Source: Sphingomonadales bacterium (GTDB taxonomy: Bacteria > Pseudomonadota > Alphaproteobacteria > Sphingomonadales > Sphingomonadaceae). From it: a DNA stretch of 64,000 bases. The notes under the pieces are model-generated. The model saw nothing but the letters and a program-made list of their open reading frames with translations, did not search any database and was not told the DNA's origin. Made by a program: the position numbers and the translations under genes. Location: positions 7,975 to 71,974 of the forward strand of contig JBBSIZ010000006.1 of assembly GCA_038257735.1 (NCBI GenBank), read 5' to 3'. Position 1 is the first letter of the stretch. Every line of letters begins with the position of its first letter. This document shows positions 5,336 to 35,860 of this stretch, one piece after another.

Positions 5336-5365
5336 CCCTGACCCGGCTCAAAGTACCACTTTGAG
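5336..5365. other. Conserved 30-bp motif with an 8-3-8 palindrome (CTCAAAGT-ACC-ACTTTGAG), copy 1
   Basis: 27/30 identical to 34441-34470. Related copy at 35834-35860. Confidence 0.8.
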
Positions 5366-5377
5366 ACGAGAGCCCCT

Positions 5378-8062
5378 ATGACCGCCGTCGGCAACAACGC
5401 CCTGAACACCCGCACCACCCTCACCGCCGCCGGCAAAACCTACTTTTATTACTCCCTCTCCAAAGCCGCGGCCCAGCTCGGCGACGTCTCCCGCCTGCCC
5501 TTCTCGATGAAGGTGCTCCTCGAAAACCTCCTCCGCTTCGAGGACGGGGTCACCGTCACCCGCGCCGACATCCAGGCGCTGGTCGACTGGCAGAAGGAGC
5601 GAAGCTCGAAGGCGGAGATCCAGTATCGCCCGGCGCGGGTGCTGATGCAGGATTTCACCGGGGTGCCCGCCGTCGTCGATCTCGCGGCGATGCGCGACGC
5701 GATGGCTCTGCTCGGCGGCAATGCCTCTCGGATCAACCCGCAGGTGCCGGTCCATCTCGTCATCGATCACAGCGTCATGGTCGACGCCTTCGGCAGCCCG
5801 CAGGCGTTCGAGAAGAATGTAGAGCTCGAATATCACCGCAACATGGAGCGGTACGAATTTTTGAAATGGGGCTCGAAGGCGTTCGACAATTTCGAGGTGG
5901 TCCCGCCCGGGACCGGAATCTGCCACCAGGTCAATCTCGAATATATTTCGCGCGGCGTCTGGTCCTCGGACGATCCGTCGGGCGAGTCGGTGGCCTATCC
6001 CGACACATTGGTCGGTACCGACAGCCACACCACCATGGTCAACGGCCTCGGAGTGCTCGGCTGGGGAGTCGGCGGGATCGAGGCGGAGGCGGCGATGCTC
6101 GGCCAGCCGGTCTCGATGCTGATCCCCGAAGTGGTCGGATTCCACCTCACCGGAAGCTTGCAGGAAGGGATCACCGCCACCGATCTCGTCCTCACCGTCA
6201 CCCAGATGCTCCGGGCCCGCGGAGTGGTCGGGCGGTTCGTGGAATTCTATGGCGCCGGAGTCTCGGCTTTGTCGGTCGCCGATCGGGCCACCATCGCCAA
6301 CATGGCGCCCGAATATGGAGCGACCTGCGGCTTCTTCCCGATCGACGGCAAGACTCTCGATTACATGCGCCTCACCGGCCGCTCCGACGATCGGATCGCG
6401 CTCACCGAGGCCTATGCCAAAGCGCAGGGCCTTTGGCTCGAGCCGGGCGCCTATCACGAGCCGCTCTTCACCGACACATTGGAGCTCGACATGGACCGGG
6501 TCGAGCCGTCGCTGGCCGGCCCCAAGCGCCCGCAGGACAAGGTGCCTTTGTCGCGGGTCGACGAGGAGTTCGTCGCCAATTTCACCAAGGAATATGGCCA
6601 CGCGCTGGGCGAGCTGTGCGAGCGCCATCCGGTCGAGGGCGAGTCCGACGTGACCGACATCGGCCATGGCGACGTCGTCATCGCGGCGATCACTTCTTGC
6701 ACCAACACCTCCAACCCGGCCGTCCTGATCGCCGCCGGACTCGTCGCCCGAAAGGCGCGGGCGAAGGGGCTGGATTCCAGGCCCTGGGTGAAGACGTCGC
6801 TCGCTCCGGGTTCGCAGGTCGTCACCGACTATCTCGACCGCGCCGGTTTGTCGGAGGATCTGAACGCGATCGGCTTCAACCTGGTCGGCTATGGCTGCAC
6901 CACCTGCATCGGCAATTCGGGGCCGCTTCCCGAGCCGATCTCGGCGGCGATCGCGAAGCACGATCTCGTCGCCGCCTCGGTGCTGTCGGGCAACCGCAAT
7001 TTCGAGGGCCGGGTGTCGCCGGACGTCCGGGCCAATTATCTCGCCTCGCCGCCGCTCGTCGTCGCTTATGCGCTGAAGGGCACGGTCGCCGGCGACATGA
7101 TAGAGGAGCCTTTGGGCATCGGATCGGACGGGCAGCCCGTCTTCCTCAAGGACGTCTGGCCGACCAACGACGAGATCCGCAGGCTGATCGACGCTCATGT
7201 CCATGGCGACATGTTCCGGGCCCGTTATGCCGACGTCTACAAGGGTGACGCCCAGTGGCGCTCGATTCCGGTCGCGGGGGGCGAGACCTATGCCTGGTCG
7301 GCGGGCTCGACCTACATCCAGAACCCGCCTTATTTCGAGGGCATGACGATGACACCGACTGCGCCTTCGGACGTCGAAAATGCGCGTCCACTGGCGATTT
7401 TCGGCGATTCCATCACCACCGACCACATTTCCCCCGCGGGCGCGATCAAGGGCGACAGCCCGGCCGGGAATTACCTTTCGGAACATGAGGTCAGCCGGGC
7501 GGACTTCAACTCCTACGGCGCCCGCCGGGGCAATCACGAAGTGATGATGCGCGGCACCTTCGCCAATATCCGAATAAAAAACCGAATGATTCCAGGCACC
7601 GAAGGCGGCTTCACCCGCCACATCCCCTCGGGCGAGACCCTCCCCATCTACGATGCCGCGATGCGCTACAAGGCGGAAGGAACACCGCTCGTCGTCATCG
7701 CGGGCAAGGAATATGGAACCGGCTCCTCGCGCGACTGGGCCGCCAAGGGCACCAATTTGCTCGGGGTCCGGGCCGTCATCGCCGAAACCTATGAGCGGAT
7801 CCACCGCTCCAACCTGGTCGGGATGGGCGTGGTGCCGCTCCAGTTCGTCGGCGACGTTCCGATCTTCGACGGCACGGAAACCTTCTCGATCAAGGGGATA
7901 GCCGGCCTCAAGCCGCGCCAGGAGCTGGATGTGCGGGTAACCAAAGCGGACGGCTCGACCTTCGCCTTCACTGCCCGGGTCCGAATCGACACCTTGAACG
8001 AGCTCGAATATTTCCGGGCTGGCGGAATCCTCCATTACGTCCTCCGCAAGCTCGCCGCCTGA
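5378..8062 (+). CDS. acnA: Aconitate hydratase A
   Basis: [57 protein letters not shown]; 894 aa. Confidence 0.98.
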
Positions 8063-8079
8063 GCGCGACCGAGCTCCTG

Positions 8080-8328
8080 GTGGAGGCCGCGGGCTGGGGC
8101 GGCGCGTCGCTCATCCTCTCGGCCTATCTCCTCCTGTCGATGGAGAAGGTGAGCGGCCAGTCGCCTGTCTACCAGGGCATGAACGTCGCCGGTGCCGCCG
8201 GCTTCATCGTCAACGGCTGGTGGCACGGTGCCATTCCGTCCGCCGCTCTCAACGTGATATGGATCCTGATCGGCGGCTTCGCGCTCCTGCGCATCGCGAA
8301 GCGCCGCCGGATGGAGGGGGTGTCGTAA
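8080..8328 (+). CDS. Small membrane protein (CBU_0592-like)
   Basis: Three hydrophobic segments (GWGGASLILSAYLL, YQGMNVAGAAGFIVN, AALNVIWILIG). Confidence 0.7.
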   Translation: MEAAGWGGASLILSAYLLLSMEKVSGQSPVYQGMNVAGAAGFIVNGWWHGAIPSAALNVIWILIGGFALLRIAKRRRMEGVS

Positions 8329-8678
8329 TGATCGAAGCGCTGCTGATGCTCGCGCCAATGCTTGCGCCAATGCTTGCAGCGACGGGCGAATATGAGCCGC
8401 CGCCGGAGCTCTTCTACCACCAGGCGGTTTCCTGCGCGGCCTCGCTCAAGGTCATTGTCGGCAAGGAGCCGAGCCCGGCGCAATTCGCGGACGTGATGAC
8501 CTGGGGAATGATCATGGCCGATAGCGGCCGCAGGATCGGCCGCAGCAAGGAGCAGGTCGACAGCGGCGACCTGGAAATCGCCGAGCCCTTCTACCAGCGG
8601 CTGAAGGAGACGAAGCCCAAAGCCTTCTCCGCCCACCGCGCTTATTGCCAGGCCATGTTAAGTGCTGATCGACCTTAG
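8328..8678 (+). CDS. Hypothetical exported protein
   Basis: ATG overlaps the preceding TAA. Hydrophobic N-terminus, and it overlaps the next gene start. Confidence 0.6.
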   Translation: MIEALLMLAPMLAPMLAATGEYEPPPELFYHQAVSCAASLKVIVGKEPSPAQFADVMTWGMIMADSGRRIGRSKEQVDSGDLEIAEPFYQRLKETKPKAFSAHRAYCQAMLSADRP

Positions 8679-35041: not shown

Positions 35042-35137
35042 ATGGACCGCCGTCCGCCAGGCCTAGGCCCCGCCGCCGAGGCCTTCGCGCGGGTCGCCGC
35101 CCGGATGGCGGAGTATGAGGCGAAGCGTGGCGCTTGA
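35042..35137 (+). pseudogene. Internally deleted antitoxin plus the first codons of a ParE
   Basis: MDRRPPGLGPAAEAFARVAARMAEYEAKRGA*, overlapped by gtggcgcttgaggttcgc (MALEVR). Confidence 0.7.
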
Positions 35138-35177
35138 GGTTCGCTTCCTTGCTTTAGTGCAGCCATTGCACTAGAAC

Positions 35178-35402
35178 ATGCCTCGGCTACAGCGCTTTTC
35201 CGCCTGCGAGATCGCGATGTTTTTCGCCGATCATCCGCCGCCGCATTTCCACGTGCTGGGGCGCGACGGAGCGGCGCAGGTGCGGATCGATACGCTGGAG
35301 GTGATCGTCTCGAGCGGGCGAATCGATCTTCGCGAGGCGCTCGACTGGGCGGCCGAGAACATGAAGCTGCTCGAGGCGAAGTGGCGGGAGCTAAGCGAAT
35401 GA
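35178..35402 (+). CDS. DUF4160 family protein (putative toxin)
   Basis: MFFADHPPPHFHV...ALDWAAENMKLLEAKW. Confidence 0.85.
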   Translation: MPRLQRFSACEIAMFFADHPPPHFHVLGRDGAAQVRIDTLEVIVSSGRIDLREALDWAAENMKLLEAKWRELSE

Positions 35403-35830
35403 GCATCGGCAGGATCGAAAGTGTCGCGATGAGGGCAAAGTCCGCGCTGGTCGTGACCTGGGACGACGGTTGCCGCGCCGAGATCGACCTCGCTCCGATC
35501 ATCGCCGACCATCCGAAGCTTCGCCCGCTCGCGGATCCGGATTCCTTCCCCGTCCGCTCGGACGATGGCTGGTCGGTCGAATGGCCGCATTGCGGTATAG
35601 ATCTCGGCTCGCCGCAGCTGAGGCGCTGGGCAGACGAACAGCGGGGAGAGGTGATGTCGGCCACCGCCTTTCGCGCCTGGATGCAGCGGCATGGCCATAC
35701 GCTCGACGCCGCCGCCGAGGCGCTCGGCCTCTCCCGCCGCACCGTCGCTTATTATCTCAGCGGCGAGCAGCCTGTCCCGAAGACGGTCATGCTGGCCACG
35801 GAAGGGTTCGACAAAAGGCAGGCGGCCTGA
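35399..35830 (+). CDS. DUF2442 + HTH protein (putative antitoxin)
   Basis: LVVTWDDG, GWSVEWP..IDLGS, and a C-terminal HTH (LDAAAEALGLSRRTVAYY). Confidence 0.85.
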   Translation: MSIGRIESVAMRAKSALVVTWDDGCRAEIDLAPIIADHPKLRPLADPDSFPVRSDDGWSVEWPHCGIDLGSPQLRRWADEQRGEVMSATAFRAWMQRHGHTLDAAAEALGLSRRTVAYYLSGEQPVPKTVMLATEGFDKRQAA

Positions 35831-35833
35831 ATC

Positions 35834-35860
35834 CCCCGACCCCGCCGAAGTACCACTTCG
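35834..35860. other. Motif copy 3 (CGAAGT-ACC-ACTTCG)
   Basis: Lies between the DUF2442 stop and the lepA stop. Confidence 0.7.

Follow-up and report, generated by a model that had tools for sequence, protein, structure and literature searches.

The window analysed here, 64,000 nucleotides of a Sphingomonadales bacterium (positions 7975–71974 of contig JBBSIZ010000006.1, our contig C6, in a 3.19-Mb draft genome of 66% G+C), carries three copies of a 27-nt hairpin. From the comparison of genomes, these copies belong to an uncatalogued, Sphingomonadaceae-wide family of gene-end hairpins that is also present in phages. All follow one plan, in which a stem of 11 bp stands between an unpaired C and an unpaired A and carries a loop of 3 nt that reads ACC or GGU depending on the strand. 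We consider it somewhat probable that the family works at the level of the transcript, as a stability, processing or translation element with a specific putative reader, a role to which the position of the copies points. An earlier note on this DNA had described the three hairpins and taken them for recombination or end-recognition sites at island borders; the observation is confirmed, and the interpretation is partly supported, through one of its alternatives and not through the island-border reading.

Copy 1 occupies 5343–5369 (+ strand; arms 5344–5354 and 5358–5368, loop ACC at 5355–5357), copy 2 occupies 34448–34474 (− strand; arms 34449–34459 and 34463–34473), and the degraded copy 3 occupies 35840–35866 (− strand; arms 35841–35851 and 35855–35865), where the bounds are taken as flank, 11-nt arm, loop, 11-nt arm and flank. 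The respective covariance model scores are 50.6, 43 and 38.9 bits. The hairpins lie where the earlier note had placed them and in the same orientation, the 11-mer core AAGTACCACTT being exact in all three and always read on the + strand, with 0.10 occurrences expected from shuffles. Copies 1 and 2 are indeed identical at 27 of 30 positions, including 10 nt of 5′ flank. Each of these two has one internal mismatch (that of copy 1 is G·A), and the two mismatches of copy 3, C·A on the + strand, become G·U pairs on the lepA strand. The predicted folding energies range from −10 to −18 kcal/mol and are better on the minus strand in all three cases (for the copy 2 RNA, −17.9 versus −10.7 kcal/mol on the plus strand). 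The reported adjacency to acnA, a lepA fragment and lepA also holds: the stem of copy 1 ends 9 nt before the acnA ATG (5378), copy 2 lies 4 nt past the stop codon of the lepA fragment with its loop reading GGU on the lepA strand, which is the usual position in the family, and copy 3 follows the stop codon of lepA itself after 5 nt.

The search of this genome and its relatives that the earlier note had proposed was carried out with a covariance model made from 29 copies of the genus. The whole-genome scan gave five copies, three of them in the window; the fourth follows the rpoA stop codon on contig C33 and the fifth, whose loop reads ATC, is placed after a small gene on contig C35 at 5 nt from its stop codon, so that two of the five are without any island link. 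Of 24 genomes in the genus, 19 contain the exact core, in up to 10 copies, while other sampled genera of the order stayed at the level of a reversed-pattern control. When one genome per species among public genomes was scanned, the 17-mer TCAAAGTACCACTTTGA gave more than 119 matches, almost all in Sphingomonadales (Allosphingosinicella, Sphingomicrobium, Sphingosinicella, Sphingomonas, Sphingobium, Stakelama and Sphingoaurantiacus), with a few in Rhizobiales; from this, the genus of the present genome is probably Allosphingosinicella. The covariance model was positive in 21 of the 112 Sphingomonadaceae genera sampled, mostly with 1–7 copies per genome and with 22 in one (G097). Among congeners, the same locus bears the hairpin in about 11 of 30 cases at rpoA, about 11 of 30 at acnA and 2–3 of 30 at lepA, and some sites carry it in genus after genus, among them the trailer of tRNA-Met and the end of a small gene whose product terminates in DYDECLACQ. 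In Rfam, neither the window nor 20 further loci gave any match for the hairpin, at the gathering score or at E values up to 5, and a full-text literature search with the core in DNA and RNA spelling returned primers only.

That the arms change together, as had been claimed, is borne out by the alignment, since 92.8% of the cells are paired in the 29 genus copies as against 30–40% when the 3′ partners are slid by 1–3 columns, and changes on both sides are seen in all 7 outer pairs. The orthologous copies at rpoA and acnA likewise stay paired via compensatory changes. Among 110 copies, 65 have an uninterrupted stem of exactly 11 bp and only 9 a longer one. Of the 65, 44 are flanked by C...A, a combination that on the opposite (GGU) strand, and on that strand only, forms a U·G pair closing a 12-bp helix. 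The apex AAGT-NNN-ACTT is constant while the lower stem is free to vary provided that pairing holds, although the apex (four pairs plus loop) is invariant by choice of the sample; loops GCC, ATC, ACT, AGC and CGC occur at orthologous sites. The constant apex and the fixed stem length together would imply a specific binding factor.

The position of the copies relative to genes was scored with the ACC strand on top, using the nearest convincing reading-frame end and a cut-off of 15 nt. The stop codon of an opposite-strand gene was found on the right (loop-GGU) side in 31 of 36 informative cases, as against 5 same-strand gene ends on the left side, and thus the loop reads GGU in the transcript of the preceding gene. 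The distances from stop codon to hairpin cluster at 0–7 nt, and all three stop codons are used (20 TGA, 11 TAA and 10 TAG). The genes concerned are housekeeping genes, mostly of the translation apparatus: hairpins follow pnp, rpmJ, rpsK, rpsI, ychF, rpoA and lepA, as well as genes for a DUF59 Fe-S protein, a PhaB-like reductase, a phasin and a lytic transglycosylase, and in at least four genera tRNA-Met is followed by a hairpin in the same orientation. The copies at rpoA, pnp and rpsI are followed, after another 10–20 nt, by a canonical GC hairpin and its T-run, and elsewhere, as between rpsK and rpoA, the next cistron begins within 4–26 nt, both of which place the element in transcribed sequence.

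A minority form lies in the ACC sense ahead of genes, 7–14 nt from the ATG of acnA, dnaN and one other gene, with its G-rich 3′ arm overlapping or abutting the ribosome-binding site; ACC-sense copies also precede tRNA-Pro, and tRNA-Ile within the 16S-23S spacer. The same DNA side of the element is turned toward the gene in both contexts, at 3′, 5′ and tRNA ends alike. The ACC-sense form was seen too in high-G+C viral contigs (IMG/VR), ahead of integrase, primase, repressor and baseplate genes, where the GGAG of the 3′ arm lies 8–14 nt before the ATG (9–15 nt before the start codons in the contigs L284, L288, L296, L303, L304, L308 and L313) and ATGA or TGATG stop/start overlaps are frequent, which suggests translational coupling via a hairpin that hides the ribosome-binding site. 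As to replication-strand polarity, GC skew in the draft genome is too weak and sign-changing to serve as a guide, and no agreement is seen between the two copies that lie outside the window.

These positions bear directly on what the earlier note had made of the hairpins. A recombination site at island borders is not supported, as the family lies mainly after housekeeping stop codons in many genera. The note had itself named, as what would speak against it, copies that were numerous and unrelated to islands or that lay at transcript 3′ ends: by position the copies are largely of this kind, while their number is small, with only five in the genome. Its alternative of a U-less 3′ hairpin comes closest for copies 2 and 3, except that the wrong strand was considered, since both follow a lepA stop codon and read GGU in that transcript.

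Placed after a stop codon, such an element would block 3′ exonucleases or offer a site for processing or protein binding, and so determine what becomes of the mRNA of the cistron upstream; placed ahead of a start codon, it would cover the region where ribosomes bind. Of the copies in the window, the second and third are the hairpin of the lepA 3′ flank, probably duplicated together with the lepA 3′ end as a toxin-antitoxin cassette entered by recombination there, and the first is part of one of several alternative acnA leaders. In a more specific form, which we offer tentatively and think more likely wrong than right by a good measure, the hairpin would be the recognition site of a putative lineage-specific factor, also exploited by phages, that reads the tip, measures the 11-bp stem and acts at the foot, and so marks where transcripts or gene modules end at genes for ribosomal proteins, RNA polymerase, tRNAs and rRNA; with the same side always toward the gene, the element would be a boundary mark with polarity instead of a stabiliser of the generic sort. 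A likeness, offered as a lead only, is seen in the RNase III sites of phage T7 mRNAs, which are hairpins at cistron boundaries with one type for host and phages. The loop-plus-ruler recognition by yeast Rnt1p would be another, in that a conserved apex and a fixed stem would suit a factor that recognises the tip and acts at the foot. Both differ from the present case, which has an 11–12-bp stem with a triloop and two loop versions according to the side of the gene, and for which cleavage is hypothetical. If the signal is specific, it would give a compact, testable handle on the fate of the most abundant transcripts of sphingomonads (those for ribosomal proteins, RNA polymerase alpha and PNPase, together with tRNAs and pre-rRNA), a large group that is used in bioremediation and is common on plants, and it would show how phages plug into the same system.

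Several points weigh against a role in RNA. The argument for it is one of position throughout. The loop reads GGU after genes and ACC before them, so that a single RNA-binding factor would need to ignore the loop, and the constant DNA side toward the gene, in an orientation far from random, fits a DNA-level reading more simply. The presence of the hairpin is patchy, both among genera and at the same locus among congeners, which is unusual for an indispensable signal. Finally, the asymmetry between G·U and A·C within stems, which might show the strand that folds, is weak and inconsistent (17 versus 8 overall, 5 versus 1 in stop-codon contexts), and its direction is opposite to that of the U·G signal in the flanks.

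It may instead be, though we regard this as rather unlikely, that the hairpin is a selfish palindrome of the repetitive extragenic palindrome (REP) or REPIN kind, that is, a tiny non-autonomous DNA element which settles, or once settled, at safe extragenic spots by gene ends, whose arms are kept complementary by DNA-level processes and which has no dedicated host function. The patchy distribution just mentioned, the one genome with 22 copies and the variable presence at a given locus would all agree with this. So would the flanks common to unrelated loci: beside the 27/30 identity of the acnA and lepA-fragment copies, the acnA and rpoA copies share an outer arm and the G·A mismatch, and these copies must therefore have moved or been converted between loci at some time. 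The hairpin is also a short (20–40 nt) imperfect extragenic palindrome in the sense used for REPs (27 nt with an 11-bp stem, intergenic or intercistronic), and it resembles the REPs, BIMEs and REPINs of gamma-proteobacteria in lying by gene 3′ ends and between cistrons and in forming occasional inverted doublets. Three such doublets, 45–66 bp apart as in REPINs, were seen (L033, G017:C7 and L133), most copies being singlets. In one species, moreover, another palindrome is nested in the hairpin loop: in the acnA leader of a congener (G063, L092:1414–1502), the loop is split by a palindrome of about 50 nt, and the loop is thus a target for another small element.

Against this stand several differences from REPs. 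The hairpin occurs in 1–22 copies per genome as against hundreds, a number 10–100 times below that of typical REPs. The GTAG or CGTC end tag is absent from the position table of the family, in which the flanks are C and A, and no cognate RAYT was found. The copy-richest genomes (G097, G202 and G159) gave no match to the Y1 transposase family PF01797, and the three PF01797 matches in the genome studied here are flanked by palindromes other than the hairpin. REP families conserve the whole arm, whereas in the present family it is the apex that is kept and the lower stem can change; sites such as the tRNA-Met trailer and the DYDECLACQ gene are kept across genera. A stem held strictly to 11 bp, a spacing of 0–7 nt from stop codons and the conservation of the apex point to selection. 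REPs themselves stabilise upstream mRNA and affect translation when they lie within about 15 nt of the stop codon. Nothing specific was found in the literature on REPs or REPINs in Sphingomonadaceae.

Some palindromes of a different kind were met in the course of these comparisons. Two RAYT-like Y1 genes of this genome look like genuine REP/RAYT units: the one at C56:11418–13884 is accompanied by its own perfect palindromes (21-nt arm, 32-nt spacer), seen four times at that locus, and the one at C41:5767–9057 has a 38-bp perfect palindrome on both sides. The 22-copy genome G097, in which no Y1 transposase was matched, contains a composite repeat that joins a GTAG-tagged, GC-rich palindrome to a hairpin with the loop ACT (plain ACC in L265).

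Less probable again, and in our view quite unlikely, is a polar boundary site that is read as DNA, the hairpin or cruciform promoting the capture or exchange of segments at gene ends in the manner of the boundary linkers of mosaic phages. This reading widens the idea of the earlier note. At the lepA 3′ end, copies 2 and 3 belong to a 207-bp direct repeat, recognized by local alignment, with its left copy at 34440–34646 and its right copy at 35833–36039, and the lepA hairpin is present twice because it forms this repeat together with the last 169 bp of lepA. The repeats bracket a 1.39-kb toxin-antitoxin cassette, the cargo between them (34647–35832) consisting of an antitoxin region of the PaaA2 type together with a DUF2442-HTH gene (35381–35830). 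To the right stands lepA itself (EF4; 35871–37724, −), and to the left the duplicated 3′ fragment (34478–34729, −), which has a LepA_C match and whose homology to lepA reaches 34646. Further left, a ParE-family toxin gene (33928–34446, +) ends 2 nt ahead of the copy 2 stem. Identity between the repeats is about 93% in the lepA part and much lower in the hairpin part, and thus the exchange took place within lepA and not at the hairpin. The arrangement could have arisen if a circular DNA with the cargo, a hairpin and a lepA fragment had joined the chromosome by a single crossover inside the lepA 3′ end.

Throughout the genus, the 3′ end of lepA is a hot spot for insertions. The sequence right after its stop codon differs in nearly every species, and local partial copies of the lepA 3′ end, comprising the last 40–225 bp and lying 40 bp to 1.5 kb from the gene, were found in at least 17 of 53 genomes. 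This hot spot is independent of the hairpin, because only 2–3 of 30 lepA loci have one; most genomes with lepA 3′ duplications lack the hairpin there, contrary to the island-border reading. In favour of a boundary site, a genome of another Allosphingosinicella species carries the same two cassettes in swapped order, each with a hairpin and a lepA fragment. Some congeners also have partial duplications of the acnA 5′ end or, less often, of the rpoA 3′ end, with inserts of about 1 kb between the copies, so that the three hairpin-bearing ends behave alike, whereas the control ends, lepA 5′ and acnA 3′, showed no such partial duplications. These gene-end duplications with inserts are the sole observation that keeps a DNA-level link alive. 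The constant side of the element toward the gene at 3′, 5′ and tRNA ends and the phage copies between modules would likewise fit.

Against a boundary site stand, in addition to the divergence of the 207-bp repeat in its hairpin part and the rarity of the hairpin at lepA loci, the lack of any tyrosine recombinase on contig C6, the unconserved arm sequence, a 3-bp spacer that fits no known recombinase core site, and the stability across genera of sites in essential operons (rpsK-rpoA) and in the rRNA spacer. Integron attC sites are similar in having a conserved structure with covarying arms and in standing at the end of small cassettes, toxin-antitoxin genes included. They differ in their length (57–141 nt versus 27 nt), in their R/L boxes and extrahelical bases and in a nearby integron integrase, none of which is found here, and most copies of the hairpin are not at cassettes.

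The surroundings of copy 1 also speak against the island-border reading. Comparison with congeners delimits a conserved acnA promoter and leader block at 5280–5377 (+), ahead of acnA itself (aconitate hydratase; 5378–8062, +; Aconitase match, 2.5e-168). Homology to relatives starts at about 5277–5281, beside the start of the divergent gene. The synteny break thus lies 56 nt to the left of copy 1, which places the hairpin on the conserved core side, inside the leader and not at the accessory/core border where the earlier note had put it. Copy 1 stands there in the ACC sense, its 3′ arm running into a purine-rich stretch ahead of the ATG. Upstream of acnA, congeners share a promoter-like block, after which come leaders of at least five unrelated types, one of which is the hairpin type, present in about 11 of 30 species with compensatory changes between them. 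In several species (seven noted), the acnA promoter, leader and first ~190 bp (~63 bp in one) are copied 0.5–1.2 kb upstream of the real gene. Since the covariance model marks true gene ends and helps to tell the native flank of a gene from inserted DNA, it should be of use at hot spots such as those of lepA and acnA, with their repeated duplication of gene ends around small cassettes.

That the hairpin is a U-less intrinsic terminator, ending transcription of the preceding gene, we consider very unlikely. Like Rho-independent terminators, it is a stable hairpin directly after stop codons, with stems of −12 to −19 kcal/mol on the strand of the gene; unlike them, it has no U-tract, there being no T-run after the hairpin and no T enrichment beside the stem on either strand, and a terminator scan called none of the three window copies. 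The separate canonical terminators downstream of the rpoA, pnp and rpsI copies argue in the same sense, as does the occurrence of the hairpin in 5′ leaders, in the rRNA spacer and at cistron junctions within essential operons, and unrelated terminators would need no conserved apex. A palindromic operator for a dimeric transcription factor, which the earlier note had also entertained and which the palindromic 7-3-7 core and the site of copy 1 between divergent genes might recall, is hardly credible given the compensatory changes in both arms, unexpected for a double-stranded operator, the fixed stem length with unpaired flanks and the location of most copies after stop codons or tRNA ends instead of in promoters.

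Three further identities were considered and rejected. A SECIS-like recoding signal does not agree with the use of all three stop codons or with the tRNA contexts. Autoregulation of aconitase through an IRE-like element fails as an explanation for the whole family, as the loop is ACC and not of the CAGUG type, the stem has no bulged C and the hairpin is found at many genes unrelated to iron. A tyrosine-recombinase core site was discarded because it would have conserved arms around an overlap of 6–8 bp, whereas the hairpin has variable outer arms and a 3-bp spacer, and because no recombinase is present on the contig.

Two minor observations may be added. In the tRNA-Met/tRNA-Pro spacer (G005, L033:1413–1662; G021, L015), two inverted hairpins lie about 35 nt apart, one of them 8 nt after tRNA-Met and the other 6 nt before tRNA-Pro, and between them is a purine/pyrimidine-rich stem that is conserved in several genera. 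In the window, the region directly to the left of the acnA synteny break (3561–5260) holds a DUF262 (GmrSD N-terminal) gene and an overlapping upstream gene without a Pfam match, which are probably an accessory defence pair.

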